Source: an uncultured virus (IMG/VR IMGVR_UViG_3300001580_000009) (taxonomy: Duplodnaviria > Heunggongvirae > Uroviricota > Caudoviricetes). Taken from it: a stretch of 64,000 nt of DNA. Numbering within the stretch: position 1 is the first letter of the stretch; every line of letters begins with the position of its first letter. Below the pieces are notes generated by a model that searched no databases, was not told the origin of the DNA, and saw nothing but the letters and a program-made list of their open reading frames with translations. The stretch lies in the IMG/VR virus record IMGVR_UViG_3300001580_000009. The stretch is one strand, 5' to 3'. Made by a program: the position numbers and the translations under genes. Below are positions 7,815 through 57,482 of this stretch, one piece after another.

Positions 7815-7860
7815 TATAATATTATATTGTAATTGTTTAGAGAATAAAATTGTTTCGGAA

Positions 7861-17467: not shown

Positions 17468-17479
17468 CACAAACTGGAC

Positions 17480-17556
17480 TAAATAAAAGTGTAGTTCGCG
17501 GAACGGGAATTCCCAACTACTCTAATGCTATAGAGGAGCATCAGCATGTGTATTTA
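17480..17556 (-). ncRNA. endonuclease-associated structured element, copy 3
   Basis: Minus strand: CTGATGCT cctctat AGCATTAG-A-GTAGTT-G-GGAAT tccc GTTCC-GCG-AACTAC, between TAAATA/TATTTA boxes. Confidence 0.65.
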
Positions 17557-26160: not shown

Positions 26161-26184
26161 GATAGTAATATTTAGTCCAAAGTC

Positions 26185-27895: not shown

Positions 27896-27963
27896 GCTGA
27901 TTGCTCCTTGTAGCGTTAGAGTAGTTGGGGAGGTGAGATTCCCGCGAACTACACCGTTATTTA
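27885..27963 (+). ncRNA. endonuclease-associated structured element, copy 4
   Basis: CTGATTGCT ccttgt AGCGTTAG-A-GTAGTT-G-GGGAG gtgaga TTCCC-GCG-AACTAC, between TAAATA/TATTTA boxes. Confidence 0.65.
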
Positions 27964-28880: not shown

Positions 28881-28919
28881 GCCAAAAAATACTCTCAAAA
28901 TATGAGAGTATTTATCACG

Positions 28920-33419: not shown

Positions 33420-33657
33420 ACTTTAATTTCCAATATGTATAATTTTCAGGGGTGAATGTCGCTTGAATAATATATTCAAACCCAAATATATTTGGGTCTA
33501 ACATACGATGCCAAGTAGGTCTATCGACAGAATTATTCATTACCCATTGACCCTTTTCGCTTTTTTCCCAATTGATCATGGGTTCGGCAGCGATTAAATC
33601 AGGGTCTTCTGAATCTAATAATGAAAATCTATGTACGATAACCTTAACTGTTTTCAT
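33412..33657 (-). CDS. small hypothetical protein
   Basis: Ends TYWKLKYE. Confidence 0.65.
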   Translation of the reverse strand: MKTVKVIVHRFSLLDSEDPDLIAAEPMINWEKSEKGQWVMNNSVDRPTWHRMLDPNIFGFEYIIQATFTPENYTYWKLKYE

Positions 33658-34577
33658 ACTGCCATTACAGCCTTAATAGGACCATGACTTTGATAGTTCA
33701 CTAATTCTATATCATTCATTGTGAACTTGTCAATGTTTACAATATCCTTATTCAGTTGTAATGTAGGTAATGGGAATTCTTCCCTAGTCAATTGTTCTTT
33801 AACTTGCTCAATATGGTCTTTATAGATATGGGTATCACCAGTGCTAATTACAAGTTCGCCCACACCATAATCACATACTTGAGCAATCATATGAGTAAAC
33901 AATGAGTAGCTAGCAATATTGAATGGTAAACCCAAAAAAACATCCACTGATCTTTGGTACATATGGCAGCTTAGTTCTTTGTTTTTATTTACATAGAACT
34001 GTGCCATCATATGACAGGGCGGCAGTGCCATTTGATCTAATTCGCCCGGATTCCAAGCAGTAATGATATGACGACGACCATTAGGATCGTTCTTCAACCC
34101 ATTAATGAGATTTTTTAACTGATCCGTTTCCTTTTCATGGAAGTAACTTTGACGGTTGTATTGGCTACCGAACGAATCCTTGTACGTTTCTTGTGCGTGT
34201 TCAATGGGCGTTTTCCAGTGCCGCCACTGTACCCCGTAGACTCTGCCCAAGTCACCTTCGAACTTAGCCTTAGGCTTCCAGTAAGGCGCGAGGGCGTTCG
34301 GCGTCCAGATCGTAACTTTACCCTCACGGGATCCATGGGTGAGTTCTGCCAATCTACGTTCATCGGATGATCCTTCTAAAAACCACAACAACTCCCCGAC
34401 TACTGCCCTCCAAGCTAATTTTTTAGTAGTAATAGCCGGAAATCCGTGCCGCAAGTCAAACCGAAGTTGCCTACCAAATACTGACAGTGTTCCTGTTCCA
34501 GTACGATCTCCTTTTTCTTCCCCATTTTCTAAAATATCTACGAGTAGATTATGGTATTGTTTCATATATTCTTTCAT
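33654..34577 (-). CDS. thyA: thymidylate synthase
   Basis: [35 protein letters not shown]. Confidence 0.97.
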
Positions 34578-35230
34578 TTAGTCCAGCGCAAAAAGTTTCC
34601 GAGATTCATTTCTTTTCTATCAGAAATTCTGCAGACGGTCTTCATCTGTGGTTTACCCTTCATCGGTGATTGTTTACCTTTTTGTGATTTTGATTTTTCT
34701 TTTGCGAGTATAGCATACTTATCGGGATTGTCAAGTCTGTCACAGTATTGTCGGAAATTAGGCATGTCCATTTCTTTCTTATCAGATAATCTACATACCG
34801 TCTTTGCTTTCTTTACTCCCAATTGTCTTTTTGTAGTCCATGGGTTTTTTCTACCCTTCAGAGCCTTGGAAACATTATTTCCATGACCATTGCATTTTTT
34901 CTTGCGTTGTTTTTGTTTATGATCTTCGGATTTAGGTCCGTGGGCACCATCTCCTCCGTCAGTGCGATTCATTAGAATTCCTGTTCCCAAATCTTTTCTA
35001 CCATACCACCGAATAAGACGGCGTTCTAACGCTAACGATCCTGTTAATGTTAACCGGTGTTCTATTATTACTATTTTGGTAGGATCGTCAGGTACACTAA
35101 CAGCATGGTCCTTTGACCATGCTCTTTTGCGTTGCCCTTTGCCTATATAATATGGTGTATTGTTTGACTGACGCAAATAAGCGTAAACATAGAATCCAGT
35201 AGGCGGATTTGATTTTGAATAAATACTCAT
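34574..35230 (-). CDS. GIY-YIG homing endonuclease between DHFR and thyA
   Basis: FYVYAYLR...PYYIGKG...NRTDGGDG; duplicated KTVCR(L/I)SD-KEM. Confidence 0.9.
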
Positions 35231-35296
35231 GCTGGTGCTCCGTAATAGCATTAGAGTAGTTGGGGAGTGGACGCCCGCGAACTACACTATTATTTA
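35220..35296 (+). ncRNA. endonuclease-associated structured element, copy 5
   Basis: CTGGTGCT ccgtaat AGCATTAG-A-GTAGTT-G-GGG agtggacg CCC-GCG-AACTAC, between TAAATA/TATTTA boxes. Confidence 0.65.
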
Positions 35297-35368
35297 TCAC
35301 CGAACACACTTCAAAGCTGTATATAAGTTGAAGACAATCAACAGTATTGTTAATATTTCAACTGTCAC
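35297..35368 (-). CDS. possible 23-aa hydrophobic mini-ORF
   Basis: GTG overlapping the DHFR stop, GGAG upstream; MTVEILTILLIVFNLYTALKCVR*. Confidence 0.3.
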   Translation of the reverse strand: MTVEILTILLIVFNLYTALKCVR

Positions 35369-35820
35369 CTACGTCTCCAAATTTCGTAATCATGATCTGT
35401 GTGCCGTTCTTTAAAGTGGCACATAAATTCTTGCTCTAATTTTACTAAATCGATAAACGTATCGCAAGTATATTCGGCTAGGGTGCGGGTAAGATGTATT
35501 TCTTTGATTTGATACCAACATGTCTCAATTAGTTTAGCACCGCCAATTAGCCAAACGTTTTGTAGTTTGTACAATTCTTTTAGCTCATTGATACAGACTG
35601 CACCTTTGGGCGGCAAGAAAAGTCTATTCGTAACAATGTAATTTGTTCTTTTGGGTAAGGGTTTAATAGGTAAACTGTCCCACGTATTTCTACCCATAGC
35701 CACAACTTGGCCTGATGTTAATTGTTTGAATCTAGGCAAATCACCCTGGATATTGTCCCAGGGTAATTTATTGTTGTAGCCTATTCCCCCGTTAGGATCA
35801 CAAGCAACGATTAATTTCAT
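35365..35820 (-). CDS. folA: dihydrofolate reductase
   Basis: IG..NKLPW, D..RFK, MGRNTWDSL, PLPKRTN, IGGA. Confidence 0.95.
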   Translation of the reverse strand: MKLIVACDPNGGIGYNNKLPWDNIQGDLPRFKQLTSGQVVAMGRNTWDSLPIKPLPKRTNYIVTNRLFLPPKGAVCINELKELYKLQNVWLIGGAKLIETCWYQIKEIHLTRTLAEYTCDTFIDLVKLEQEFMCHFKERHTDHDYEIWRRR

Positions 35821-39063: not shown

Positions 39064-40158
39064 TCAACCTGCTTCCACGATGTACTTGCCGTACTTCTTA
39101 TGGAAAGTGTCGAAGTTCTTCAGTTGACTGGGCTCGATCGGCAGACGATAGGTCTTGAGTGCGATCTTNGCGCCCATNACNACCAGTTCAGTCTCAAAGT
39201 TTGCCATGATGTAGCTGAAGAANTTATCAGCCATTTCATGGAANTGCTTGCTGTTGACTCGCTTGTTNTCCAGAGCGTCCTTCAGTTCGTAGCACATAGA
39301 AATCGTCAGGGAGTACATNGCCGAGATTTCCTTGACCTGCAGATCCTTGACCTTACCCGANAGAATGTCAGTCGGNTCGGGCATCTTNCCAGCNATCTTN
39401 CGGTGAGCCATGAACTTGACAGCCAGACCTTCACCAACTGCACCTGCTACCAGGTTGTACAGGGTATCGTAGTCAACATCCTCGTCCTTGAGCAGGTCAC
39501 TAACGAAAACCCAAGAACGGGGCGTAGCAAAAGCACGGCTAGAGGACTTACTGTTGAAGTCATAGATATCCTGCTTGGCGAACGACAGATAACCAACCAC
39601 GTCCTTGTGGATACCTTTGGTCACTGCCCAGTTCTGCCACGAAGTAAAGTCGGGGCGCATTTCAAGGTGAATGAAACGATTCGCCAGGGGCATCGGCATG
39701 CGGAACGTCACGCCCTTGTCACTGTCGCGGTTACCTGCTGCAACGATAACCACGTTATCGGGCAGAGTGTACTTACCGACTCGGCGGTTAAGAATCAGTT
39801 GATAACCTGCAGCCTGAACAGCGGGTGGGGCAGAGTTCATTTCATCGAGGAACAGAACCACGATCGGGTACTGAGCCGCGAAGTCTTCGTCGGGCAGATC
39901 AACGGGCGGGGCCCAGTCCATCTTGCCGAGGTCCTTGTTGAAGAACGGGATACCGCGAATGTCAGTCGGCTCCATCTGCGCCATACGCAGGTCAATCATC
40001 GCACCGCCGAGTTCGTCGGCGATTTCAGACACGACCTCAGACTTACCGATTCCCGGGGGACCCCACAGAAATACGGGGCGCTTAGATTGAAACGCCTTGA
40101 GGATCGCCTTGCGGGCTTGAACGGAAGTGATAGTGAGGTTGTCAGAAACTTGAGACAT
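39064..40158 (-). CDS. MoxR-like AAA+ ATPase
   Basis: GPPGIGKS, LFLDEMN, AAGN, NRF, TPRSW; paired with the VWA gene. Confidence 0.9.
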   Translation of the reverse strand: MSQVSDNLTITSVQARKAILKAFQSKRPVFLWGPPGIGKSEVVSEIADELGGAMIDLRMAQMEPTDIRGIPFFNKDLGKMDWAPPVDLPDEDFAAQYPIVVLFLDEMNSAPPAVQAAGYQLILNRRVGKYTLPDNVVIVAAGNRDSDKGVTFRMPMPLANRFIHLEMRPDFTSWQNWAVTKGIHKDVVGYLSFAKQDIYDFNSKSSSRAFATPRSWVFVSDLLKDEDVDYDTLYNLVAGAVGEGLAVKFMAHXKXAXKMPXPTDIXSGKVKDLQVKEISXMYSLTISMCYELKDALXNKRVNSKXFHEMADXFFSYIMANFETELXXMGXKIALKTYRLPIEPSQLKNFDTFHKKYGKYIVEAG

Positions 40159-42430: not shown

Positions 42431-44386
42431 TCAAGGTGGGCATGTTCCCCAAACTGGTCTTGATAAAGTCCAGGATGTCGCTCCGGTGTCGAAATCTACT
42501 GGCAACACTGGTATTAAACTGACGCACCATGTACTAAGGTCTTGATTGAATGCTGTTGCATTTCTAAACATATAATTCATGTTAGATACCGATATAGTGT
42601 TCCATGCACTGATATCCTGATTAAATTGTTGTGCTCCGCTGAACATATTACTCATGGTAGAGACTTTACTAACGTTCCAGTTGCCAATTGGTTGATTGAA
42701 CTCTGAATTAACAAACATGCTACGCATGTCAGTCACGTTGCCAGTATTCCATGTATTAAGAGGCTGATCAAATACGGATATATTAAACATCGAAGACATA
42801 TTCGTAACTTTACTAACATCCCAATTACCGATAGGTTGATTGAACAAACTAGGTCCAGTGAACAAGCTTCCAGCAAACATAGCTTGCATATCAGTGACAT
42901 TGCCAGTATTCCAGCTGCCAATCGATGGGTGATTGAATACGGATGCCCCAAACATTTGAGCCATATTTGTGACAGAACTGGTGTTCCATCCGCTTAAGTC
43001 TTGGTTAAAGGCCAATGAGCTATTAAACATATATCTCATATCAGTAACTTTACTGACATCCCAAGATCCAATTGGCTGATTAAAAGCCTTTGCCTGAGCG
43101 AACATATTAGACATAGAAGTAGCATTACTAACGTTCCATGTACCAATTGGTTGGTTAAATACCCATGTTCTGAAGAACAGGCCGGCAAATTCAGTAACAT
43201 TACTCACGTCCCAATCTAATACATTTGGATGATTGAATTTTTCGGTTCCTGACAACATGTACAACAAGCTAGTCATTGTTGATGGTATATAGTTAGGCAA
43301 ATATTCTAAATTTTTACAACCGTCAAACATCCAATCAGCTAGTATAATATCTAATGTACCCCAATCAGTAACACCGGTTATATTATAGTTCCATGACATT
43401 TCTAACGAATTCGTTTTTCCATATAACTTAGCAGTGTAAATGGCAGGTGTGCTATAGGTGTGTGAAATATAATCTTCTGGATTCGTGTATTGTTCTATTA
43501 CACCATCGCCCCAATCGACTGTAAGATTTGCATCACTCGCCGCTAGCATGTATATACCAGTGTCAATATTAGCGTCGATTGTTAAAATCATTGGTTGCGG
43601 GCATGTACCCCATACTGGTTTAGGCAATGTCCACAAATTAGCACCCATATCAAATGCGCTCGGTGCCGTTGGTATCAATGACACACACCAGTTACTCAAA
43701 TCTTGATTAAATGCTGATGCTACGTTAAACATATAATTCATGTTTGTGACAGAAGAAGTATCCCAACCGCTAATGTCTTGATTAAATGCGGTAGCATAAC
43801 TAAACATGTAACTCATATCAGTGACATTACTAACATTCCAATTGCCAATTGGTTGGTTGAATATAGTAGCCTGATAGAACATATTATTCATGTTGGTGAC
43901 GTTTGAGGTATCCCAACTCAGAACGTTAGGGTCATTAAAACTAGCCGTATATAAAAACATACCACTAGTATCTGTCACGGTAGATGGAAGGTAGTTAGGG
44001 ACTTTCGTTAAGTTTACCCACTGCCTAAAGGCATAACTTAAACTCGTCATTCCCAAATTACCCCAATCAACAACTTCAATAAAACTTGCTAACCAACTAA
44101 TTCCGCCGTATTGTGCTCCTATCCGATCTGTTGTTCCAGTAACACTGATGGTAAAGACCTCATCCGTCGAGTAATAATGATTGGCTGGCCCGTATGCGGG
44201 TTCAATCGTCCCATCTCCCCAATCAATTGTAACTTCCGTAGTCCACCCAAACGGAATTTGAACAGTTCTCCCGTAGTTCGTGTCAACTTTCAGTGTGAAC
44301 GCCGAAGTCGGAGGAGGGGGCGGAGGAGGATCTCCACTAAACGATATGTACACACCATTCAAAAATACATTGTCTAAGTTAATCAT
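42431..44386 (-). CDS. BspA-like/DUF285 repeat surface protein with PKD-like domains
   Basis: Many W(D/N)(T/V)S.VT.M..MF...FNQ repeats; two (I/V)DWGDG domains; TATAAATA upstream. Confidence 0.85.
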   Translation of the reverse strand: MINLDNVFLNGVYISFSGDPPPPPPPTSAFTLKVDTNYGRTVQIPFGWTTEVTIDWGDGTIEPAYGPANHYYSTDEVFTISVTGTTDRIGAQYGGISWLASFIEVVDWGNLGMTSLSYAFRQWVNLTKVPNYLPSTVTDTSGMFLYTASFNDPNVLSWDTSNVTNMNNMFYQATIFNQPIGNWNVSNVTDMSYMFSYATAFNQDISGWDTSSVTNMNYMFNVASAFNQDLSNWCVSLIPTAPSAFDMGANLWTLPKPVWGTCPQPMILTIDANIDTGIYMLAASDANLTVDWGDGVIEQYTNPEDYISHTYSTPAIYTAKLYGKTNSLEMSWNYNITGVTDWGTLDIILADWMFDGCKNLEYLPNYIPSTMTSLLYMLSGTEKFNHPNVLDWDVSNVTEFAGLFFRTWVFNQPIGTWNVSNATSMSNMFAQAKAFNQPIGSWDVSKVTDMRYMFNSSLAFNQDLSGWNTSSVTNMAQMFGASVFNHPSIGSWNTGNVTDMQAMFAGSLFTGPSLFNQPIGNWDVSKVTNMSSMFNISVFDQPLNTWNTGNVTDMRSMFVNSEFNQPIGNWNVSKVSTMSNMFSGAQQFNQDISAWNTISVSNMNYMFRNATAFNQDLSTWCVSLIPVLPVDFDTGATSWTLSRPVWGTCPP

Positions 44387-44460: not shown

Positions 44461-45330
44461 TTAGAGTTTGCCTTCTTGTTTCATTTTTTCTCGTATCTTT
44501 GTTGCCGAGATAGAATGAATACTTTCATCAAACGTTTCTTGTTCAATCTTATAACCTACATCACGACCATATGTAATGTTCACAATGTTAGGTACAACTA
44601 AGATTTCATATTGCCCCTGAAATAGTGGGTCTAAATCTCTACGAATATAGCTTTTAACTTGCTCAATAGCGAATGGATTACTGTTATTCCAACCTTGACA
44701 ATCACGTATCATGATAACGACTTGTCCAGTCTTGGCAATTGCTCGTTCAAACAACGCACGATGCCCTTCATGCCATGGTTGCCAACGCCCGAGCATTTGA
44801 ACTGTTTCTTTCTTCCAATCAAATACCGGACGGCGCCGTTCTTCTAAGATATGATTGCCTACAAATTCTACCCACTTTTCAGCGTTTTGCTCTGTGATTC
44901 TAAAATCATACATGTCAGGCGGGACAAACGCTTTGTTGGTGTCTTCATAACGACCTTGATCAATTGTGTCCATCCAAATCGTCCAGTCTGCTTTGAAGTT
45001 GTGACGCATTTCGGGCAGCGGCGCGACGAAATCACAGATAACAAAGTCACCGGTACACTTCAACGCAAACTCAAACATGCGTAGACTTTGACGAATGCGA
45101 CCTTCACGGCTGAAATCCCAGTCATTAAAACGACGACGAATTTCGTCAGCATTAAACCAATCTACTTTTACATCATAGAAATGCTTAGGTGGGATACCCT
45201 CATACATTGCAAAACGTATCGGGTCAATCTTTTCTGCATCACCATTTTCTTCTAAATACTTCTTTAGACGTTCAGCGAAGTATGTTTTGCCCGAGCCTGG
45301 CAGACCCATAATTAAAATTCTTTTTGCCAT
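44461..45330 (-). CDS. adenylyl-sulfate kinase-like domain fused to a HIGH-type nucleotidyltransferase domain
   Basis: GLPGSGKT...NADEIRR...DFS.EGR; C-terminal GRWQPWHEGH...ISATKIR. Confidence 0.8.
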   Translation of the reverse strand: MAKRILIMGLPGSGKTYFAERLKKYLEENGDAEKIDPIRFAMYEGIPPKHFYDVKVDWFNADEIRRRFNDWDFSREGRIRQSLRMFEFALKCTGDFVICDFVAPLPEMRHNFKADWTIWMDTIDQGRYEDTNKAFVPPDMYDFRITEQNAEKWVEFVGNHILEERRRPVFDWKKETVQMLGRWQPWHEGHRALFERAIAKTGQVVIMIRDCQGWNNSNPFAIEQVKSYIRRDLDPLFQGQYEILVVPNIVNITYGRDVGYKIEQETFDESIHSISATKIREKMKQEGKL

Positions 45331-45400
45331 ATAATTCTCCTTGAACTATTATAGCAATATTTAAGGTCTATGTATATAGTTTGATTAAAACTATTCGCCC

Positions 45401-45586
45401 TTACTTGCGTAATAATGGGGGAATACCTGCTCCACTGACATTGAACCCAAATGCTTTAGCATTCTTTTTTATTGTGTCTGGCTTGATGTCCACTGTTAAC
45501 GCCATGCAGTATCTATGGTCGTTTTTCTCTTTCTCTGAGGGAATATAACCAGATGCGGATTCTTTTATTATTTCATTTATTTTCAT
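45401..45586 (-). CDS. re-started C-terminal module of the 46351-47700 gene
   Basis: MKINEIIKE-SASGYIPSEKEKNDHRY..ALTV duplicates the upstream gene end; own TAAATA box. Confidence 0.75.
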   Translation of the reverse strand: MKINEIIKESASGYIPSEKEKNDHRYCMALTVDIKPDTIKKNAKAFGFNVSGAGIPPLLRK

Positions 45587-45597
45587 TAAACTATTTA

Positions 45598-46287
45598 TTA
45601 TTTACAATATTTTCCCTTTAGATGCCTTGATAATTGACTCATCCCTTTTCCCTGCTTGCCACATTTTTCACAGGTCCATGTTTTATGAGCAGGATGAGTT
45701 CCGGTTTCTAACATTTTTTGTATAGGATGCGTCCCCTCTTCAAATTTCTTTTTATTTAAAGTTGAACCTAAAAAATTATGTGTTCCGTCTTTTACTCTTT
45801 TGAAATTAGTTTCCTTACCAACAGATGATCCGTCTTTGTTCTTTAAGAAGGGGTGTGTGCCTTTTTTGACTTTATTAAGTTCTTTTTCTCTAGCCCAATC
45901 TTTGTCTAAAAAATGAAAAGTACCCTCATTTATTTTTTGATAAATTGATTCTAATTGCGCTTTTCTAGAATTCGAACCTGATAAAAAATTATGCGACCCG
46001 TCAGCAATTCTTTGTTTAGCATTTTTTCTAGATAATTCAGACCTTTGCTCGTCTGTCAAAGTTAAATTTCTAGCAATCAAATTACAGGCTCCCCAATCTT
46101 CTTGTAAATAATGAATATCAAAATGTTCTTTTATAGATACTGCTTTTAAATTTTCAGGGGAATTATTGGAACGATTTCCATCAATATGATGTATTTCAAA
46201 TGACCTTCCGTTTGAATCTTTTGGTATGGGGCCATTATGGTTGATATAGATTCTACGGTACTTATTAGTACCACAATAAATACACAT
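45598..46287 (-). CDS. HNH homing endonuclease (paralogue of 17546-18271)
   Basis: MCIYCGT...FEIHHIDGNRSNNSPENLKAVSIKEHFDIH; G(T/S)H(N/P)F repeats. Confidence 0.9.
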   Translation of the reverse strand: MCIYCGTNKYRRIYINHNGPIPKDSNGRSFEIHHIDGNRSNNSPENLKAVSIKEHFDIHYLQEDWGACNLIARNLTLTDEQRSELSRKNAKQRIADGSHNFLSGSNSRKAQLESIYQKINEGTFHFLDKDWAREKELNKVKKGTHPFLKNKDGSSVGKETNFKRVKDGTHNFLGSTLNKKKFEEGTHPIQKMLETGTHPAHKTWTCEKCGKQGKGMSQLSRHLKGKYCK

Positions 46288-46353
46288 GCTGTAACTCCTT
46301 ATCAGTTATAGAGTAGTTGGGTGTTAGCGCACCGCGAACTACACTTTTATTTA
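46277..46353 (+). ncRNA. endonuclease-associated structured element, copy 6
   Basis: CTGTAACT ccttatc AGTTATAG-A-GTAGTT-G-GGTGT tagc GCACC-GCG-AACTAC, between TAAATA/TATTTA boxes. Confidence 0.65.
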
Positions 46354-47700
46354 TCTTTTTCTTACCGTTAATGCTGTCTTAAATCTTGGATCATTTTTCT
46401 CAGCATTGCTAGGAATGTATCCTGAAGCACTTTCTTGTAAATCTTCATCTTCTAAATCTACTAAATCAACATATTTTATTGGAACATTTTTTATTGCTGC
46501 TGCTAATGCTCTGTGATTACCGTCAATGATTCTATCACCAGAAATAACTATTATTTTATCCGATAAATTTGGATCTTTAGTATATGACTCAACATGATCT
46601 TTTTGTTCCTCATCCATCATGTCAAATAATTCGTCTATGTGTTCTACACGATATTGACTGGTCAACATTATCTTTAACATGTGCTTTGGTAATACTTTAA
46701 CGTCTAAGGGTGTTTCCAATTCGCCAGGTCTGACTTCATCCCAAAATAATTCATCTCTATCTGGATAGTTTCCGTTATATAACTGTTTTAATGTGATAGT
46801 GTTATTATTCTCGCTGATTGATCCGCGAAACTGTCTATCTTTCATTCCACCGTACGGATTTACTGCCGGTGTTTTCTCGGCTGCAAATTGTAGTGTTTCA
46901 TCTTCTGTTACATCAAACGTTTCGAATTCTTTAGCAAATCTCTCTGCTAATTGTTCTTCGTCAGTTAAGGGCATTGTAGGAAGATGTGCGCTTTCTATGC
47001 TCAACTCCTCGCTATGTAGCTCGTCACGTAATTGATATAATTTTGTAATTAATCCCTGACTACGAATTGCTTTGAAAGCTAAATTTTCAGGACCAAATTC
47101 ACCGCCCTTTTCTAATCCTGCTTGTCTATATCGTTTGATTGTCTTTAATGCTTCTTGGATCTTGTCAAGATTTTTAGACTTTAATGCTAATTCAATAACC
47201 TTAGCTAGTTTTTCAAACTTTGCTTTTGTAGCTGTTTGATCAAAATTTGCTCTACGCTTTGTAGGGAATTTAATCCACTCGTTTCTTAATAAACTATACT
47301 CACCTAAACTCTTTACAGGTTCTCTTGAATCTTGAACATATAATTCTACTGGTACACCATGAACCTTAACATCATGACTATCGTTATACAATGTCTTTTT
47401 AGCGTTGAACAATTCTTTGTAGACCTCATCGTTAGGTAATTTACCCATATCAACAATGATATGTAAATCCAAGTCACTATGAGNTGTATAGCTATACGCT
47501 GCGTTTGAGCCTGACACAGTAATATCTTCTACATTCAACCCACTGATACCCAATTCTGNCATAAAGTCTTCAGCAATGATTTGTAATTGCTTTTCAACTT
47601 CGTGACGAAGGTGCATGCCACTCCATAATTTTGGGTTCAGTTTATCGTGAAATGTCACGGCATCAGACATTTTAAATGAGTCTAGTTCTTTGAGGTTCAT
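46351..47700 (-). CDS. late protein: Pol-beta-type nucleotidyltransferase domain plus ParB/Srx-like domain
   Basis: SGSNA...SDLDLH motif; IIDGNHRA motif; CATAAATA just upstream. Confidence 0.75.
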   Translation of the reverse strand: MNLKELDSFKMSDAVTFHDKLNPKLWSGMHLRHEVEKQLQIIAEDFMXELGISGLNVEDITVSGSNAAYSYTXHSDLDLHIIVDMGKLPNDEVYKELFNAKKTLYNDSHDVKVHGVPVELYVQDSREPVKSLGEYSLLRNEWIKFPTKRRANFDQTATKAKFEKLAKVIELALKSKNLDKIQEALKTIKRYRQAGLEKGGEFGPENLAFKAIRSQGLITKLYQLRDELHSEELSIESAHLPTMPLTDEEQLAERFAKEFETFDVTEDETLQFAAEKTPAVNPYGGMKDRQFRGSISENNNTITLKQLYNGNYPDRDELFWDEVRPGELETPLDVKVLPKHMLKIMLTSQYRVEHIDELFDMMDEEQKDHVESYTKDPNLSDKIIVISGDRIIDGNHRALAAAIKNVPIKYVDLVDLEDEDLQESASGYIPSNAEKNDPRFKTALTVRKR

Positions 47701-50338: not shown

Positions 50339-51124
50339 ATGTTTTTGCCATATGTTTACATTGTAAGAAATCGAGTTGATAAAAAGTTTTATATCGGAAT
50401 GAGATCCGCAAATAAAGTAGTTGCTGAACAAGATTTAGGGATTCATTATTTTACTTCATCTAAGCATGTCAAAAATAATTTTTCAGATTACGATATAGAA
50501 ATCAAAGCATATTTCATAGATCAAATTTCGGCATTTGAATTTGAAAATGAATTAATAAAACAGAATTGGGGTGATCCTTTATTACTGAATAGACATTATC
50601 AAAAATCAATGTCTAAATTTTCTATGACTGGTGCTAAACGTGCGGATCTGGCTGAATATAATAGAAAAGCAAAATCTAAGCCTAAGGAAGAAAGAAAATA
50701 TCAATGCTCTAATTGCCAATCGGATTTAACTCGTATTGAATTTTGTCACCATAGTCCTAAGGAAAATTACTTCTGTGATGCTAAGTGTAGAAATCATTAT
50801 TTCATTTTCCAATCAAAAACCAAAAGTTCTTTATGTAAGCCGAAATTGAAAAAGGATTTCNTCATAAGGCCTTGTGAACGTTGCAAAAAATTATTTGAAA
50901 TGATTTCTACTTCTAAATCAAAATTTAAATGCTGCTCACAAAGTTGCAGAATGAAATTAGTTCTCAAAGNCGGTGGGCACCCGGCTTGGAATAAAGGGTT
51001 AGAAAATCCACAATCAGCAATTAATGGTAGAAATAGTGCTAAAAAACAATCAAAAACAGTAACTGGAAGAAAAAGAAAATATTTAGCAGACGGTACTTGG
51101 ACTTGGGAGTACCCAAACAAATAG
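50339..51124 (+). CDS. GIY-YIG-like (Seg-type) homing endonuclease inserted in the tmRNA locus
   Basis: YVYIVRN...KFYIGMR...YFTSSK...E..LI...LLN; Cys-rich C-terminus; TATAAATA at 50315-50322. Confidence 0.8.
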   Translation: MFLPYVYIVRNRVDKKFYIGMRSANKVVAEQDLGIHYFTSSKHVKNNFSDYDIEIKAYFIDQISAFEFENELIKQNWGDPLLLNRHYQKSMSKFSMTGAKRADLAEYNRKAKSKPKEERKYQCSNCQSDLTRIEFCHHSPKENYFCDAKCRNHYFIFQSKTKSSLCKPKLKKDFXIRPCERCKKLFEMISTSKSKFKCCSQSCRMKLVLKXGGHPAWNKGLENPQSAINGRNSAKKQSKTVTGRKRKYLADGTWTWEYPNK

Positions 51125-51143
51125 GGACCGAAGTCCCTATTTG
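51118..51143. terminator. probable bidirectional UUCG terminator between tmRNA and endonuclease
   Basis: CAAATAGGGAC-TTCG-GTCCCTATTTG. Confidence 0.75.
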
Positions 51144-51460
51144 GGTTATTCTTTGACAAGGGCACCACCCTCGCTATTAGGCGTTTGCTGCTAATAGATA
51201 TGTATCGTCGTTTGCAGATACTTGTTTTATGCGATTTACGGTCGTCACCTACCGTGTTGTCCACTCTGTTACTCTTTGCCCTGTCGAAACCAGTCACCCC
51301 CATCAAAAGCACACATTAAGCAGATATTACTTCACCACTATCATCTGTACCATCGCACTATTTCAGGTGAGTAGCGATGTATGTGCTTTTGGTGGAGGTG
51401 GGGAGAATCGAACTCCCGTCCAAGACCTGTTTCACTTCACTTCATACAACAATAACTTAC
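51118..51460 (-). ncRNA. ssrA: circularly permuted (two-piece) tmRNA
   Basis: Acceptor piece ...GGACGGGAGTTCGATTCTCCCCACCTCCACCA ends at 51390, then a self-pairing intervening segment. Coding piece starts GGGGGTGACTGGTTTCGAC at 51301. G3-U70 pair present. Tag ANDDTYLLAANA* at 51215-51177. Outer ends are approximate. Confidence 0.92.
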
Positions 51461-51466
51461 AGTATA

Positions 51467-51474
51467 TATTTATA
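51467..51474 (-). promoter_or_regulatory. T4-type late promoter for tmRNA
   Basis: TATAAATA. Confidence 0.75.
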
Positions 51475-51485
51475 CTCTAACCTAG

Positions 51486-51695
51486 TCAAACGTTTCGGAT
51501 ATCCTGTACCCAACCCAAACAAAAACCATTGTAAACAACTTTATCAACGATCATAAAGTTATACAATGGTTTCTTATATATAGTTTCGAGTTTATGTTTC
51601 AAGTCGTTCGGATCGGTGAAATCAAGTGGGTCAATTAACCCACTTGACTCAACTTGTTTTCTATTAATCAATAAATCTCTAGGAATAAATTTCAC
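51486..51695 (-). CDS. hypothetical protein
   Basis: 69-aa ORF with GTG start. Confidence 0.5.
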   Translation of the reverse strand: MKFIPRDLLINRKQVESSGLIDPLDFTDPNDLKHKLETIYKKPLYNFMIVDKVVYNGFCLGWVQDIRNV

Positions 51696-51713: not shown

Positions 51714-54700
51714 TTATTTATATTTTTTGTTGAAATAATCCTGTAGCCAACTCCATTCATAGCTTAATTTCAACTTAGCCATGTCACCCTTCACTGATTC
51801 AAAGTACTCAATAGCGTCTTTAGCCCCATTGATACTATATTCGGCGAAGTCACCCTTAGCTTTAGTTAACCAATCACGCAATCTTTGCTTACTGACCTCA
51901 GAACTATCAGCATGAAGTTTCAACACTTCTCTAAATGCTGTACGCCAAGTACTGAACTCGTCAGTGTTAAACATCGCAACACCTGATAATATTTCAATTA
52001 CCTCGTGTTCGTCATCTAGGGTGAAGTCAAGACCTTTACTACCGTCATTAGCTAAAACAAGTTTCTTGTTGTAAGCAATCATAGCTTGGTGACCGTATAC
52101 TAAATCATTCACGGGGTTCTTCGCGTGAAAGATGTAATGCTTAGGTACTTGAAGCCTATCTGGTTGCCAACCCCAGTCAAACTTATTACTAACTTTTAAC
52201 TTAGCGAATACTGTGAACGCCCATGGGGTGTTACTTGCATTCACTGCTGCATGATAAGCTTGAACACGCCCATTAATACCGTCAACTCTTACAACACGAT
52301 TCGGTAAACCCTTAACTGTGTCTAATAGATGTTCATAGTTTTCATCAGCACACTTTTCGCCATTACTTAAGAATACAATGTCCATTGGATTACTAGACTG
52401 CAATCTACTAACTGGTTTAATGTATGGATAATCGTACAATTCTTTCTTGATGTAGTCTTTTACATCGCGAGGGACAGTGATACTTGTGCCACCTGAACTA
52501 GAAATAATGATGTTGCGTTTGTTAGGTGCCCATAATGCCATTGGTTCATCATTATTAACTTTGATATTTTGATTGTCTTCCGTAACTAATACAGCATACG
52601 GGAAATCAAACTCTTTGTTAACAATGTCAACATGTGTGTCACCTGTCACAATTACTGGAGCAGGCAAACGTCTAACTCTTTGATGTTGATTGTAGTTAAC
52701 CTTCTTGTATTCATCAAGTAATGTTAGATCATCAATCAATGTCTTAGTCTTTGTTACATCAACTAAGAATGTGTCACCGAACTTTTGCCTATCACTAGGG
52801 AACACATGTAGTTGATCTTTTGCGAATGGGTCAGGTACATAGTTAAATTGGAACTCTGTGTAGTCGCAAACACTACTACATATCCACAGATAGTTTTCTT
52901 TTCTGTCTGGAACACGATGTATAAAATTCTGGAATGTCTTTAGATAACTATCGTCAAACTTGACAACAGAAATATCCTTGTACAGAACCTTCTTCTTCAA
53001 TAACTCCAAAACTGTTTCAGTCTCTTTGTTACCGTGATCAACCAACACAATGTCATATAAGCAATTGGTAGCAATAGCAATACGGTTCTTAACAAAGTTA
53101 AGATTGCTCAAGTGTTCAATGATCTTAATGTACTTGGTATCATTAGCAAATGTTTCACGATTGACCATAAAGGTCGTGCCCCAATGTGACCACTGAGTAC
53201 CAAATACATGAACTAATTGCATCTGCCAGGGGTTAGGGTAATAGTTAAAATCAAAATTACTGTAATCTAAATTACTATCTAAAATCCAGCACAAATTACT
53301 ATCTGCTCTGTTAATACAACGATTGATTGTGTCAACCCATGTGTTAAGGAATCTAGTTTTCTGAATGCTAGGAAATTTAGCCTTCAATGCTTGGTAACGA
53401 TCATTACTTTGTACATTACCTCTATCTACAAAGAACATATCTGGTTTCTTGAATAGCTTGAATAATGTTTCGTCATCCAATGCTTTATCTTCGACCCAGT
53501 TGATATCTCTATGACCTTGTTCCCACATGTAGGCGTTAACAAAATATGTTTGAGTCAATTCACTTGCGCTAGAACCGAATGCGTGAACATATCTTGCTTG
53601 CTCAATACTAGGTCTCCAGTCAAAGTTAAAGTCTGAATAATCTAACTTAGGATTCAATGCCCAGAAGATTTCATTCGGGTGCTGTTTAACTAGGTCTTCT
53701 AATGTAGTTTCTACAAAATACTTCGGAATTACCTTAAATTCATCCTCTGTTTTTTCTTTTTCTACACGAACTAGCTTAACAACTTCCCCGTTGTTATCGG
53801 GGTGAATGTAACGGGGACCGTCTTCGTCGTTAGCAATAGTACCGAACTGATATATATAAGGTGGGCTACCAGGATCAGGGCGCCAGCTGAAATCAAATGT
53901 AGATACATCTATACCTTCTTTGATTTCCCATTTAGTCATATCCGGTAATGCATATGCGGTTATAGCATTGATATACTTCTTTTGAGTAGCACCGGGAACA
54001 CGATATTCTATAGTAGGTTCTTTTTCGGCAGAGAACCATTGGTTACCGAACACATAGATATAAGGAGGACTATCAGGATGGGGCACCCATGAATAATCAA
54101 ACTTGCTTTCATCAATTGGTATCAGAGGATACCAATTTGCCTTATTACGTTTCGTATTCCCCACAATATCAGTCATGTACTTGTACTGTGTTGCACCCGG
54201 TACCCTATACTCTGGTCCGCCTCGCTCATTCCATTGGGTCCCGAAATGATAGATGTACGGTTGCTCTGTTTCATCAGGGTGCCAACTATAATCAATTGAT
54301 TCCGGGTCTACGTTTGCCGGTACATGCCAATGATCGCGGTTAGGGAGCTTCTTCGCTTTTAATACTCGCGTATCAATGTACTTGACAAAACTAGTTTCAT
54401 CAGCATCAGGTCCTATATACTTAGGACCGCCCGTCTTTTGCCATTGAGTTCCAAATTGATAGACATAGGGTTGATCTTCAGCATAAGGATGCCAGCTAAA
54501 GTCAAAACTAGCAGTATCAATATCGTTCGGCACTACCCAATACTTCATTGAAGGAGCAGCTTTAGCGACAGGTTCATCCATGTACTTAACTTCAGTGGCT
54601 TCCGGTGCTATATATTTCGGACCTCCTGTTAATGCCCATTGAGTACCGAACTGATAAATGTATGGTTTCTCAGTGGCATCCGGGTGCCAGCTAAAGTCAA

Positions 54701-57482
54701 AACTCTTTACATCAATGTCTCTAGGAATTACCCAATTATTTCTGTTAGCTAATCTCTTAACACGACAGTTATCCATGTATTTAACTGGAGTGTTTTCGTC
54801 AGCATCAGCAGGAACATAACGAGGGCCGCCTGTCTTTTGCCACTGTGTTCCCCACTCATAGATAAATGTCGGATCTTTAGGATTTGGTTTCCATGTGAAA
54901 TCAAAATCAGTCGTATCAACGTCATCTGGTATATGCCAGTTGAGCATATCGGTATCTAATGTAGCAACCACATCATTGATATACTTAACCTGCGTTGCTC
55001 CGGGGACACGATATTCAATCGTAGGCATTATTTCAGCAGGATACTGATTATTACCGAACACATAGATATATGGCTCTTCCGTTTCATCAGGATGCCAGCT
55101 AAAGTCAAAATCTTTAATCTTTAGGTTATCTAGGATAGCGAATCTCTGTTTATTTGGCAGTCTAGTTGCCTTAAGAATTCTACTATCAATATACTTCACC
55201 GGTGAGGCAGTAGTGGCTCCGGGCGTTACGTACTTAGGACCGCCGGTCTTTTGCCATTGTGTGCCGAATTGATATACATATGGTTGGTCTTCTACGTATG
55301 GGTGCCAACTGAAGTCAAAACTTTCAGCATCAACATCATTAGGTACTACCCAATTAGTTCTATCCGGTAATGCAATAGCCATCGGGTATTCAACATATGT
55401 TGTCTCCGTAGCACCAGGCACTGTATAGATAGGACCACCAGTCATTGCCCACTGAGTTGCGAAATTATAAATGTATGCCGGACTAGTGTTGTCTGGGTGC
55501 CAGCTAAAGTCAAAGCCTGACACATCGCAATTTTTCGGAACAGTCCAATTCTCAGTAGTCGGCAATGCTTTAACCTGATGAGTCGTGACATACTTTGTTT
55601 CAGTGGCGCCATCTACAACATAACGAGGTCCACCAGTCTTCTGCCATTGTGTACCGAATTCGTAGATATATGCAGGATCTTTGGGATTTGGCTTCCAACT
55701 AAAATCAAAGCCAGTTGTGTCGATGTTCTCAGGGATTTCCCAATTAGACATGTCTACGTCTAGGGTCGCTACAATATCATTAACATATTTGATTTGCGTT
55801 GCGCCTGATACAGCATATTCAATCGTAGGCATGATTTCAGCCGGGTACTGATTGTTGCCGAACACGTAAATATAAGGTTCTTCAGTTTCATCAGGGTGCC
55901 AACTGAAGTCAAAATCTTTAATTTTAAGATTGTCTAATATAGCAAATCTCTTTTTATTGGGCAGACGTATTGCTTTTAAGATTCTAACATCAATATATTT
56001 AACCGGCGAGGCTGAAGTTGCACCCGGTGTCACGTACTTAGGGCCACCTGTCTTTTGATGTTGAGTGCCAAATTGATAGATATAAGGTTGATCTTCTACA
56101 TAAGGATGCCAACTGAAGTCAAAACTGGCTGCGTCAACATCATTAGGTACTACCCAATTGGTCCGGTCTGGCAATGCGATTGCCATTGGAAATTCAACAT
56201 ATGTAACTTCAGTGGCACCAGGCACAGTGTACGTGGGTCCACCGGTCATTGCCCACTGAGTTGCAAAATTGTAGATATATGCAGGGCTCGTAGAATCAGG
56301 ATGCCAACTAAAATCAAACCCAGTTACATCACAATTGACAGGGACGGTCCAATTTCCTCTAGAGGGAAGTGCTTTAGCTTTTTGAATATCAATGTACTTG
56401 ATTTCTGTTGCTCCATCTACTACATATCGCGGTCCACCTGTCTTTTGCCATTGTGTTCCGAATTCGTAGATATATGCAGGATCATGCGGATTAGGTTCCC
56501 AGCTAAAATCAAAATCACTTACGTCAACGTTGGCAGGAATTTCCCAGTTATCCATACATGGTTTGCGAATTGCTCGTTCTTCCATGTATTTGTATTCTGT
56601 TGCTCCTTCAACAACATATTGAATGCTGATTTTGTCTTCTGGTTTATTCCATTGGTTGCCCCATGCATATATATAGGGCGGACTCGTTGGATCAGGACGC
56701 CATGAATAATCTATACCGTGACTGTCTTCCAGATGCTGAAATAATTCTGATTTCGCAGCCAGCTTTGGCTGCATTCCATGCGTTTCTATAAATTTACGTT
56801 CGCCGGCGCCCGGCAAATGATACTCAATTGTGGGCATCACTCTGCCTGAATGCTGTTTATTCCCAAATACCCAAATTAGATTAGGCTCTCTTGGATCTGG
56901 TCTCCAAGTAAAGTCAAATGAACCTTCTTCTATATCTTCTAAAAAGACCCAACGTTCTTTTTCGGGTACTACCGCCACCACATCGGACATGTATTTTTCT
57001 TGAGTAGCGCCCTCTACATGATATTTAAGAGTTGGCTTTAATTCTGCAGGTATCCACTTATTACCCCACACATAGATATAAGGTGGACTTGTAGGATCCG
57101 GATGCCATCCAAAATCAAACTTAGATTCATCAATAGGTTGTAGTATTTCCCAATGTGAATTCTTTTCGTTCTTGCGCTTTAGCGGGTCAACGTCACCACG
57201 ATAGATAATTATATCGCTATCATTTTTGCTACACAACCATGTGCCACTATCTTTTTGGTAGACACTAGGCCATACATTATTATGATCTTCTGCCCATACA
57301 TCTTCGTCAGGCAGGAAATCGAAATCAAAATCCCAATCGAAATTTTTATAATCACAAAACTCGTTTATGATCCAAAAATGTTCAGTGGTAGATTGATTTC
57401 TAGCATCTTGGAGGGAGGTAGCGAATCTCTCTCTTGGGTGGACGTTGGGTTTTTTTCCGTAATAAAAGACATCTCTAAGCAT
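51714..57482 (-). CDS. giant repeat protein (about 20 FDFxWxP units) with glycosyltransferase-like terminal domains
   Basis: 1922 aa; repeats FDFSWHP...PYIYxFGxQW...GGPxY; C-terminal DIVFLSNGE...AWRTAFRE-like domain. Confidence 0.75.
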   Translation of the reverse strand: MLRDVFYYGKKPNVHPRERFATSLQDARNQSTTEHFWIINEFCDYKNFDWDFDFDFLPDEDVWAEDHNNVWPSVYQKDSGTWLCSKNDSDIIIYRGDVDPLKRKNEKNSHWEILQPIDESKFDFGWHPDPTSPPYIYVWGNKWIPAELKPTLKYHVEGATQEKYMSDVVAVVPEKERWVFLEDIEEGSFDFTWRPDPREPNLIWVFGNKQHSGRVMPTIEYHLPGAGERKFIETHGMQPKLAAKSELFQHLEDSHGIDYSWRPDPTSPPYIYAWGNQWNKPEDKISIQYVVEGATEYKYMEERAIRKPCMDNWEIPANVDVSDFDFSWEPNPHDPAYIYEFGTQWQKTGGPRYVVDGATEIKYIDIQKAKALPSRGNWTVPVNCDVTGFDFSWHPDSTSPAYIYNFATQWAMTGGPTYTVPGATEVTYVEFPMAIALPDRTNWVVPNDVDAASFDFSWHPYVEDQPYIYQFGTQHQKTGGPKYVTPGATSASPVKYIDVRILKAIRLPNKKRFAILDNLKIKDFDFSWHPDETEEPYIYVFGNNQYPAEIMPTIEYAVSGATQIKYVNDIVATLDVDMSNWEIPENIDTTGFDFSWKPNPKDPAYIYEFGTQWQKTGGPRYVVDGATETKYVTTHQVKALPTTENWTVPKNCDVSGFDFSWHPDNTSPAYIYNFATQWAMTGGPIYTVPGATETTYVEYPMAIALPDRTNWVVPNDVDAESFDFSWHPYVEDQPYVYQFGTQWQKTGGPKYVTPGATTASPVKYIDSRILKATRLPNKQRFAILDNLKIKDFDFSWHPDETEEPYIYVFGNNQYPAEIMPTIEYRVPGATQVKYINDVVATLDTDMLNWHIPDDVDTTDFDFTWKPNPKDPTFIYEWGTQWQKTGGPRYVPADADENTPVKYMDNCRVKRLANRNNWVIPRDIDVKSFDFSWHPDATEKPYIYQFGTQWALTGGPKYIAPEATEVKYMDEPVAKAAPSMKYWVVPNDIDTASFDFSWHPYAEDQPYVYQFGTQWQKTGGPKYIGPDADETSFVKYIDTRVLKAKKLPNRDHWHVPANVDPESIDYSWHPDETEQPYIYHFGTQWNERGGPEYRVPGATQYKYMTDIVGNTKRNKANWYPLIPIDESKFDYSWVPHPDSPPYIYVFGNQWFSAEKEPTIEYRVPGATQKKYINAITAYALPDMTKWEIKEGIDVSTFDFSWRPDPGSPPYIYQFGTIANDEDGPRYIHPDNNGEVVKLVRVEKEKTEDEFKVIPKYFVETTLEDLVKQHPNEIFWALNPKLDYSDFNFDWRPSIEQARYVHAFGSSASELTQTYFVNAYMWEQGHRDINWVEDKALDDETLFKLFKKPDMFFVDRGNVQSNDRYQALKAKFPSIQKTRFLNTWVDTINRCINRADSNLCWILDSNLDYSNFDFNYYPNPWQMQLVHVFGTQWSHWGTTFMVNRETFANDTKYIKIIEHLSNLNFVKNRIAIATNCLYDIVLVDHGNKETETVLELLKKKVLYKDISVVKFDDSYLKTFQNFIHRVPDRKENYLWICSSVCDYTEFQFNYVPDPFAKDQLHVFPSDRQKFGDTFLVDVTKTKTLIDDLTLLDEYKKVNYNQHQRVRRLPAPVIVTGDTHVDIVNKEFDFPYAVLVTEDNQNIKVNNDEPMALWAPNKRNIIISSSGGTSITVPRDVKDYIKKELYDYPYIKPVSRLQSSNPMDIVFLSNGEKCADENYEHLLDTVKGLPNRVVRVDGINGRVQAYHAAVNASNTPWAFTVFAKLKVSNKFDWGWQPDRLQVPKHYIFHAKNPVNDLVYGHQAMIAYNKKLVLANDGSKGLDFTLDDEHEVIEILSGVAMFNTDEFSTWRTAFREVLKLHADSSEVSKQRLRDWLTKAKGDFAEYSINGAKDAIEYFESVKGDMAKLKLSYEWSWLQDYFNKKYK

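Follow-up and report, generated by a model that had tools for sequence, protein, structure and literature searches.

A two-hairpin leader of phage homing-endonuclease genes with a wobble pattern that fits the strand antisense to the nuclease

RESULTS

In a 64,000-nucleotide (nt) stretch of DNA from an uncultured virus of the Caudoviricetes (IMG/VR record IMGVR_UViG_3300001580_000009; hereafter, the window), a leader cassette at positions 46276 to 46354 heads a homing-endonuclease gene. It contains two hairpins enclosed by two copies of a late-promoter motif of the phage T4 type. Both hairpins covary, and it is well supported that the wobble pairs of the second one fit only the strand antisense to the nuclease. 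The best explanation is that this stretch of about 79 nt is the regulatory module of a mobile homing-endonuclease cassette. The evidence for the strand of the fold is good; an antisense RNA that acts on the nuclease is what we infer.

Structure of the leader cassette

The focal cassette is wedged between the stop of a 449-amino-acid open reading frame (ORF; 46351 to 47700, minus strand) and the first codons of a 229-amino-acid ORF (45598 to 46287, minus strand). The latter is the HNH_3 homing-endonuclease gene led by the cassette (Pfam HNH_3, E = 3.7e-12; phrog_12324, intron-like DNA endonuclease). Along the minus strand, which is the mRNA strand of the nuclease, the parts come in the order ATAAATA, 5-nt spacer, hairpin 1, T, hairpin 2, C, ATG, and TATTTAT. 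The outer ATAAATA box (46348 to 46354, minus strand) is a match to the T4-type late-promoter motif and the putative promoter of the nuclease mRNA. The TAA inside it (46351 to 46353) doubles as the stop codon of the truncated upstream gene. Hairpin 1 (46313 to 46342) has a 6-base-pair (bp) outer stem, GTAGTT/AACTAC, followed by the G of CGCGG paired over two bulged bases, GG/CC, two variable pairs, and a loop. Hairpin 2 (46289 to 46311) has an 8-bp stem and a 7-nt loop that holds the Shine-Dalgarno sequence on the mRNA strand; the motif itself, AAGGAG (46295 to 46300, minus strand), spans the loop and the 3' arm and reads as an anti-Shine-Dalgarno, CUCCUU, on the antisense strand. The nuclease ATG (46285 to 46287, minus strand) is followed by the inner ATAAATA box (46276 to 46282, plus strand), which is reversed, appears as TATTTAT in nuclease codons 2 to 4, and is a candidate late promoter for an antisense RNA. 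The two ATAAATA motifs thus face each other, 65 nt apart, with conserved spacings.

On the plus strand, antisense to the nuclease, the stem of hairpin 2 is CTGTAACT/AGTTATAG, 8 bp with a G·T at pair 3, and the strand continues beyond hairpin 1 as ACTTTTATTTAT at 46343 to 46354. All of the elements that the original prediction had described at this site are present, namely, both boxes, the 8-bp stem with its G·T at pair 3, the second hairpin, and the ACTTTTATTTAT tail.

To place the focal copy among relatives, we used two sets of sequences. At least 124 IMG/VR loci match the hairpin 1 pattern, and the first set comprised 120 distinct 180-nt segments, of which 117 parsed into the full layout; these are the elements counted below unless another set is named. 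The unparsed segments, excluded from the counts, have a different second hairpin (L022 and L068) or lack one (L113). Alignment A1 holds 117 sequences, with L046, which contains an N, excluded. Since the first set had been chosen by the sequence of hairpin 1, we built a covariance model (R1) and ran it on five large contigs behind the loci, where it gave 33 more matches (13, 8, 3, 8, and 1). This contig search yielded 30 distinct full-length copies whose selection did not depend on the hairpin 1 pattern. The model-gathered alignment, A2, holds 32 distinct copies from five other contigs.

Both hairpins covary far beyond chance. In A1, covariation of the two-hairpin structure was 0.213, compared with 0.069 after shuffling (none of 500 shuffles reached the observed value) and at most 0.060 when partners were slid; 89% of its pairs are standard on the mRNA reading. 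In A2, covariation was 0.523 (0.167 shuffled, 0 of 500; at most 0.094 slid), and 15 of 19 pairs vary on both sides, with changes on both sides in 9 of the 11 pairs of hairpin 1. Invariant in the first set, the outer stem of hairpin 1 swaps with full compensation in the model-gathered set (GTAGTT/AACTAC, GTGAGT/ACTCAC, GTTAGT/ACTAAC, GTCAGT/ACTGAC, GTAGGT/ACCTAC, and GTAGGC/GCCTAC). In the model-gathered copies, the pair formed over two bulged bases by the G of CGCGG is G-C in 25, A-T in 4, and A·C in 1.

Strand asymmetry of the fold

An A·C mismatch on the mRNA strand is a G·U wobble on the antisense strand, which allows the two strands to be compared pair by pair. We placed the stem of hairpin 2 by a scoring that weighs G·U and A·C equally. 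Across the 117 elements, the mRNA strand had 759 Watson-Crick cells, 185 A·C, 1 G·U, and 4 other mismatches. Pair 3 is A·C on that strand in all six window copies, all 117 elements, and all 45 distinct stem haplotypes, and without this invariant pair the count is 68 A·C to 1 G·U. Among the 45 haplotypes, which represent 122 distinct hairpins, there were 27 A·C, 1 G·U, and 7 other mismatches (binomial P = 2e-7), and the model-gathered set gave 43 A·C to 1 G·U. When one fixed structure was imposed on A1, hairpin 2 had 76.4% standard pairs on the mRNA strand versus 96.0% on the antisense strand, with 8 versus 191 G·U cells. Pair 5 shows how the stem changes. Read on the antisense strand, it is U-A in 43 elements, U·G in 49, and C-G in 10, an ordinary compensatory path via wobble, and its commonest state is a C·A mismatch on the mRNA strand.

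Hairpin 1 is nearly symmetric, with 98.2% (mRNA strand) versus 98.6% (antisense) standard pairs on A1; in the model-gathered set, its first ten pairs include four A·C and no G·U. Its loop-side inner pairs have a weak asymmetry in the wide set (21 A·C versus 9 G·U). The original prediction had pointed to extra wobbles in this inner stem, and these do occur in copies 1, 2, 3, 4, and 6, but they are loop adjacent and the bias they suggest is weak in the wide set. It was right about the outer-stem G·U of copy 2 (GAGGAT/ACCCTC) and about the G-U at pair 3 of the 8-bp stem in all six copies.

Folding energies differed between the strands when RNA parameters were used. The minimum free energy (MFE) of hairpin 2 was -2.52 kcal/mol on the mRNA strand versus -5.32 kcal/mol on the antisense strand, which was better in 107 of the 117 elements, while hairpin 1 had nearly equal values (-9.03 and -9.32). 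For the whole core, the antisense strand was better in 104 of 117. A comparison of the strands by RNAalifold, as had been proposed at the outset, gave -26.9 for the mRNA strand and -35.3 for the antisense strand. The focal copy folded at -19.0 kcal/mol (z = -2.81) on the antisense strand versus -14.6 (z = -1.80) on the mRNA strand, and the copy at 7866 to 7936 at -21.1 (z = -2.63) versus -10.5 (z = +0.92). With DNA energy parameters, there was no strand difference (core, -6.23 versus -6.39; antisense better in 65 of 117), and hairpin 2 came to about -1.3 kcal/mol on either strand. That the difference vanishes under DNA parameters points to RNA.

The original prediction had assigned the fold to the strand antisense to the nuclease. 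The haplotype counts (27 versus 1) and the energies (antisense better in 107 of 117) bear this out, and the excess of A·C over G·U persists in the larger alignment (185 versus 1 across 117 elements). Strand-biased mutation as a source of the asymmetry was considered and rejected by reasoning, since one strand would have to undergo T>C and G>A changes, and not A>G and C>T, at about 27:1 and in both arms.

Promoter-like boxes and a proposed antisense RNA

The boxes keep their distance from the hairpins. TAAATA lies 5 nt ahead of hairpin 1 in 102 of the 117 elements, and TATTTA lies exactly 6 nt past hairpin 2 in 98 and 5 to 7 nt past it in 108. The offset between TATTTA and the ATG is 5 nt in 80 elements, 4 nt in 16, and 3 nt in 13, which gives nuclease starts of the forms M-x-I-Y, M-I-F, and M-Y-L. 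Because TATTTA occurs in three reading frames at a fixed 6-nt spacing, it is a nucleotide-level element and not an accident of coding. It is kept across 12 N-terminal clusters of downstream ORFs and, as had been claimed, is found within the first codons of the nuclease in all six ORFs of the window. The bases that flank both boxes are A-T in 66 elements, A/C in 11, and C/T in 8; C-G (3) and G-C (2) compare with about 1.5 expected in total, a count in which some of the elements are related. A T-rich tail (at least five T in 8 nt, 0 to 2 nt past the stem) follows in 115 of 119 elements.

T4 late promoters have the sequence TATAAATA and start transcription a few bases downstream. T4 late transcripts begin about 6 to 7 nt past the box, and we placed the 5' end of the predicted antisense RNA by this rule. 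The virus carries genes for replication and recombination of the T4 type, together with a T4-type terminase. Minus-strand ATAAATA boxes stand 5 to 25 nt upstream of ORF starts at 15490, 28909 (terminase), 30603 (baseplate), 31400, 44410, 45592, 47705, and 50195. This gene content and the boxes ahead of ORFs are compatible with reading the motif as a T4 late promoter, and together with the T4 consensus they suggest that the outer box may function as one. Separately, ATAAATA occurs at or inside the 3' ends of nuclease ORFs (45592 to 45598 and 27331 to 27337, minus strand), right before the next piece of host gene. The cassettes appear to bring a predicted promoter for the downstream gene.

We propose, tentatively and at somewhat less than even odds, that a late promoter inside nuclease codons 2 to 4 makes an antisense RNA of about 60 to 65 nt, like RNA-OUT of IS10. 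Both boxes would be T4-type late promoters. From the outer box, transcription of the nuclease mRNA would begin at the base of hairpin 1, and because hairpin 2 is weak on that RNA (about -2.5 kcal/mol), the Shine-Dalgarno sequence would probably be open. The inner box would initiate the antisense RNA of about 60 to 65 nt at the foot of hairpin 2', and this RNA would form two stable hairpins and end in the U-rich complement of the outer box. At the focal locus, the predicted transcript (46288 to 46354, plus strand; about 58 to 67 nt, with both ends predicted) consists of hairpin 2', A, hairpin 1', and ACUUUUAUUUAU. It would be fully complementary to the mRNA leader, the Shine-Dalgarno sequence, and the AUG, with the anti-Shine-Dalgarno in the loop of hairpin 2'; complementarity to the ribosome-binding site (RBS) and AUG holds by construction. 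Pairing with the nuclease mRNA would block ribosome entry or lead to cleavage of the duplex, and the nuclease would be held down. Since the hairpin 1 sequence is common to five of the six window copies, such an RNA could act across copies, as in multicopy inhibition by IS10 RNA-OUT.

Transcription from the adjoining host gene is another conceivable source of RNA on the antisense strand. Of the 101 elements with at least 700 nt of upstream flank, 52 have a divergent upstream neighbor, 31 a co-oriented one, and 18 one of unclear orientation. The fold asymmetry was -2.46 kcal/mol in divergent and -3.04 kcal/mol in co-oriented cassettes (P = 0.49), and the inner box was kept in 48 of 51 and 30 of 31, respectively. 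Since box and asymmetry are alike in both classes, host read-through cannot supply the antisense RNA, and we rejected it as the source of the antisense fold; this favors a promoter that belongs to the module itself. As a separate observation on these 101 elements, most cassettes are antisense to the adjoining host gene.

Several points weigh against the proposed antisense RNA. It is a prediction from sequence, and the promoter activity of both boxes is suggested by their motif. The cells that make up the asymmetry are not independent events, as the elements are related. ATAAATA is not enriched across the window (30 found, 25 expected). In five elements (L062, L071, L110, L116, and L150) that belong to at least three nuclease clusters, TATTTA is replaced by TACTTA, always by the same single transition; synonymous losses of the box were not seen. 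TACTTA is a poor match to the late-promoter consensus, and it would still pair, as a G·U in the closing helix, if an antisense RNA extended over both boxes. A terminator scan of 45300 to 47000 found none, possibly because the hairpin stem has bulges, and the U-rich tail arises automatically as the complement of the outer box. Both promoters would act late, and silencing of early read-through transcripts is therefore beyond what the antisense RNA can explain. Finally, the part of the T4 literature covered by the review PMC2988022 offers a precedent for a rival use of TATTTA, in which it pairs on the mRNA strand with the late-promoter sequence.

Alternative explanations

That rival use amounts to a translational mask in the style of T4, which the original prediction had raised as UAAAUA/UAUUUA pairing and which we consider unlikely here. 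In read-through mRNA, AUAAAUA would pair with the UAUUUAU after the AUG, closing a three-way junction with both hairpins and hiding the start, whereas transcripts from the late promoter would lack the 5' partner and be translated; TATTTA would then be a pairing partner and not a promoter. In the relevant passages of the literature, this logic is described for I-TevI, I-TevII, I-TevIII, segB, and Aeh1 mobE (PMC2988022), and the same reading was also applied to the hairpins of metagenomic free-standing endonucleases (PMC2677866). The pairing itself is viable, with a probability for the closing helix of 0.40 with 15-nt flanks (above 0.5 in 45 of 110) and 0.68 from box to box, next to 0.73 from box to box on the antisense strand. 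It would also explain the fixed spacing of both boxes and provide the early-phase silencing absent from the antisense model. Left unexplained are the A·C bias of hairpin 2 (185, or 68 without pair 3, versus 1 G·U and 4 others) and its invariant pair 3. Moreover, the helix, whose 7 or 8 A-U pairs close a multiloop, is much weaker than the "very stable" hairpins of T4; the Shine-Dalgarno sequence lies outside it; the box-flanking pair has no clear covariation (A-T 66, A/C 11, C/T 8); and the TACTTA variants have no compensation in the promoter box. Alternatively, the inner box could drive an outward late transcript, whose hairpin 2'/1' leader would stabilize the message of the neighboring host gene. 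Insertion would then be harmless in either orientation, and repression of the nuclease would be a by-product or absent. We think this quite improbable. The outward RNA would be sense to an opposite-strand upstream neighbor in 52 of 101 elements, including those at 7858 to 7944 and 17477 to 17562, yet it would be antisense to the upstream gene in 31 of 101 and in four of the six window copies, the focal one among them, and neither the box (30 of 31 versus 48 of 51) nor the asymmetry is weaker in the co-oriented class. Although endonuclease genes carry promoters of neighboring genes according to passages of the T4 review (PMC2988022), and ATAAATA precedes the next gene at the nuclease ORF 3' ends (45592 to 45598 and 27331 to 27337), a hairpin with a U-rich tract would tend to end the transcript before it reached the neighbor. 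In addition, the neighbor of the 17477 to 17562 copy seems, judged by eye and with no scan made, to have a sigma-70-type promoter of its own between module and ATG.

Two further explanations dispense with an RNA that acts on the nuclease mRNA. A protein-binding or processing site on the mRNA or on double-stranded DNA, such as an operator bound by the nuclease or by a phage regulator, or a site of RNase cleavage, would attribute the wobbles to sequence-specific contacts; this we regard as very unlikely. The primary sequence GTAGTTCGCGG / CCCAACTACTCTA is conserved beyond what a hairpin needs, though the first set was selected with that pattern, and when copies are sampled without it, the outer stem varies freely with full compensation, which favors structure over sequence contacts. 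I-TevI binds an operator and represses its own late promoter, as described in part of PMC2988022, whereas here nucleases of 12 N-terminal clusters share one module, which makes autoregulation by each nuclease unlikely. We hardly credit a strand-specific single-stranded DNA (ssDNA) structure, of the attC or IS200-end type, used in cassette movement or recombination-dependent replication. The original prediction had offered it as an alternative. G·T is the least harmful DNA mismatch, and the asymmetry could in principle mark one DNA strand; a short inverted repeat bounds the module, and the cassettes are mobile, being missing at the same site in relatives. The idea is weakened by the absence of a DNA strand preference (core, -6.23 versus -6.39; antisense better in 65 of 117) and by the energy of hairpin 2 as DNA (about -1.3 kcal/mol). 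The cassettes also lack an integrase or HUH transposase/TnpA, their downstream ORFs being nucleases (HNH_3, NUMOD3, and GIY-YIG-like). Homing by double-strand-break repair requires no such ssDNA structure.

Copies, spread, and genomic context

A repeat search and regular expressions found six cassette copies in the window, and R1 returned exactly these six (E ≤ 5e-18), besides one weak palindromic echo (E = 0.076). In addition to the focal copy, they lie at 6275 to 6359 (minus strand; 85.6 bits with R1), heading a nuclease ORF with its ATG at about 6291; at 7858 to 7944 (plus strand; copy 2), with the variant outer stem GAGGAT/ACCCTC, heading the nuclease at 7929 to 8480; at 17477 to 17562 (plus strand), heading the HNH_3 nuclease at 17546 to 18271; at 27879 to 27966 (minus strand), within the split large-terminase gene; and at 35214 to 35299 (minus strand), between the genes for dihydrofolate reductase and thymidylate synthase. 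A pattern made from hairpin 2 of the focal copy (copy 6) alone matched only that copy because the stems vary among copies.

In contigs from four metagenome runs, other cassettes align only over 27884 to 27929 and 35219 to 35296 and diverge on both sides. As the match runs from box to box only, the shared module is bounded by the two boxes. Relatives that lack a cassette at the same site attest to its mobility. We clustered the downstream ORFs on their first 100 amino acids, as single linkage of whole products fused nearly all of them. The 134 distinct products fell into 12 clusters (39, 35, 23, 18, 8, 3, and 3 members and five singletons), with features that include HNH_3, NUMOD3, and weak GIY-YIG matches.

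The 86-nt module had no blastn matches in 50,697 cultured-phage records (E ≤ 1e-3). Its 2.4-kb surroundings matched cultured phages solely in a short piece of the nuclease, in five Salmonella phage records. Rfam has no family for the module: at the gathering threshold, the window returned only a transfer-messenger RNA (tmRNA), and 46200 to 46420 at E ≤ 10 returned three chance-level matches. We also rejected a hammerhead-like three-way junction, judged by eye, as neither the lengths of the junctions (6, 1, and 5 nt) nor their sequences agree with one and Rfam gave no match.

At the focal locus, the cassette interrupts a conserved gene (phrog_36119) close to the 3' end of that gene. The upstream host gene (46351 to 47700, minus strand) is shortened by the insertion after ...TALTV, and seven homologues end in ...ASGYIPSEKEKNDPRFKTALTVDV...AGIPP.... 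The interrupted ORF stops after TALTV plus RKR, and a 61-amino-acid ORF at 45401 to 45586 (minus strand), with an ATAAATA box just upstream (45592 to 45598), repeats ESASGYIPS...ALTV and holds the detached C-terminal remainder of the gene. A segment of about 22 amino acids (ESASGYIPS..KND..ALTV) is therefore duplicated on both sides of the insert (45401 to 45586 and 46351 to 46430, minus strand). R1 found no cassette in 58 homologous loci (80 fetched).

A nuclease cassette divides the large terminase gene (26185 to 28898, minus strand) into two pieces, and the intein at this locus is atypically split. The N part of the terminase ends in a 33-amino-acid piece that starts with C, and the C part opens with about 127 amino acids that end in SN before C and have a weak match to Intein_splicing (E = 1.9e-4, below the cutoff). 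A related contig (run X6) joins 26907 straight to 28056, without the 1,148-nt insert. A group I intron was rejected for this locus, as there was no Rfam intron match and no space for a ribozyme core beside the ORF. At the cassette between dihydrofolate reductase and thymidylate synthase (region 33654 to 35820, minus strand), a related contig from run X6 has 459 other letters in place of 34364 to 35365.

Other features of the window are set apart from the cassettes. A permuted tmRNA gene of the betaproteobacterial type (51118 to 51503, minus strand; beta_tmRNA, 110 bits; tmRNA_permuted, 119 bits) hints at a betaproteobacterial host. A 1,922-amino-acid ORF (51714 to 57482, minus strand) contains about ten repeats of about 200 nt and has no PHROG match, and a 651-amino-acid ORF (42431 to 44386, minus strand) contains repeats of about 75 nt and matches PHROGs of unknown function. 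Single N positions (n = 63) are scattered over the window (e.g., 4424 to 5135, 25656 to 26740, and 39169 to 39400), often at third-codon spacing, which suggests a consensus of mixed strains.

DISCUSSION

The principal selfish genes of large phages encode homing endonucleases. Only for a few T4 cases, all of them interpreted on the mRNA strand, is it understood how a phage can tolerate a dozen nucleases, some of them in essential genes such as the terminase. The module described here is short, widespread, and common to many nuclease families, and its evolutionary record points to the opposite strand. The observation that prompted this analysis is confirmed, and its interpretation is partly supported.

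It is possible, though we lean toward doubt, that the module defines a new family of late-expressed cis-antisense RNAs of about 60 to 65 nt. Such a family, found in uncultured T4-like phages, would be part of a portable bidirectional module to which any nuclease ORF could be joined, with copy-number-dependent cross-repression of unrelated nucleases in the same genome, a phage counterpart of IS10 multicopy inhibition. If true, this would be a new structured RNA family outside Rfam and, for T4-like phages, the second documented case in which antisense RNA is linked to homing endonucleases. The module would also provide a compact bidirectional expression element with possible use in phage engineering. 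If the antisense RNA does not exist, the 27-to-1 wobble asymmetry wants another cause, and the case would be instructive for methods of strand calling.

Parts of this picture have counterparts among known leaders. In T-even phages and Aeh1, passages of the review PMC2988022 describe a late-promoter sequence that pairs with the start region in read-through RNA. The leaders are alike in having a late-promoter motif directly upstream of the endonuclease ORF, hairpins at the RBS, and a cassette amid host genes; here, a TATAAATA-type box, by motif match, stands immediately upstream of the endonuclease ORF. However, the box here precedes both hairpins instead of forming part of the masking stem. The Shine-Dalgarno hairpin is weak on the mRNA strand, and its wobbles fit the opposite strand; in place of a very stable RBS-sequestering hairpin, we found one that averages -2.52 kcal/mol with 76.4% standard pairs. 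Our module also has a second box, reversed inside the ORF, and a single design for many nuclease families.

A second counterpart comes from freshwater metagenomes. Dassa et al. (2009) described a split terminase with an unusually split intein and free-standing endonucleases between gene halves, termed "fractured genes," in the passages of PMC2677866 considered here, and the terminase locus of our window matches this arrangement. They reported hairpins in 15 of 16 endonuclease 5' untranslated regions (UTRs), of which ten include TATAAATA, and found that two conserved motifs pair with each other in the stem. In their interpretation, these hairpins are attenuators on the mRNA strand, and the word "antisense" is absent from the main text of PMC2677866. 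Judged from that textual description, the leaders are alike in placing a conserved hairpin and late-promoter motif ahead of a free-standing endonuclease. The full fractured-gene layout, with an endonuclease between split-intein halves, an upstream hairpin, and TATAAATA, is found only at the 27879 to 27966 copy. The strand asymmetry, the wobbles of the second hairpin, and the inner box are features of our module that do not appear in those passages.

Antisense RNAs opposite mobile genes provide the other line of comparison. Full-text literature searches found only the papers on cyanophage CfrI to join antisense RNA, a late promoter, and homing endonucleases, and they returned no paper on a facing-promoter module. 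CfrI of the T4-like cyanophage S-PM2 lies opposite a homing-endonuclease gene, but as described in part of PMC2984593, it is about 225 nt long, covers both the endonuclease gene and psbA, has no known function, and is not a small portable leader. The likeness to a type I antitoxin that had been suggested at the outset is loose, and RNA-OUT of IS10 and art200 of IS200 would be better analogues. In IS200, art200 is a cis-encoded small RNA opposite the tnpA 5' UTR, accompanied by an mRNA structure at the start region. According to PMC4513863, that mRNA-strand structure itself represses, whereas in our module the hairpin on the mRNA strand is weak.

Both kinds of regulation, control of a selfish gene by a cis-antisense RNA and hairpins in homing-endonuclease leaders, are already known. 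For the former, relevant passages of PMC5006887 describe IS10 RNA-OUT as a structured RNA of about 69 nt with complementarity to the translation initiation region and an action in trans that extends across copies. In IS10, the 5' end of the selfish gene lies between facing promoters; in our module, it lies between facing promoter motifs. Our module differs in belonging to a phage, in having late-promoter motifs instead of sigma-70 promoters, and in serving a homing endonuclease instead of a transposase. Its predicted complementarity would extend over the whole leader and include two hairpins.

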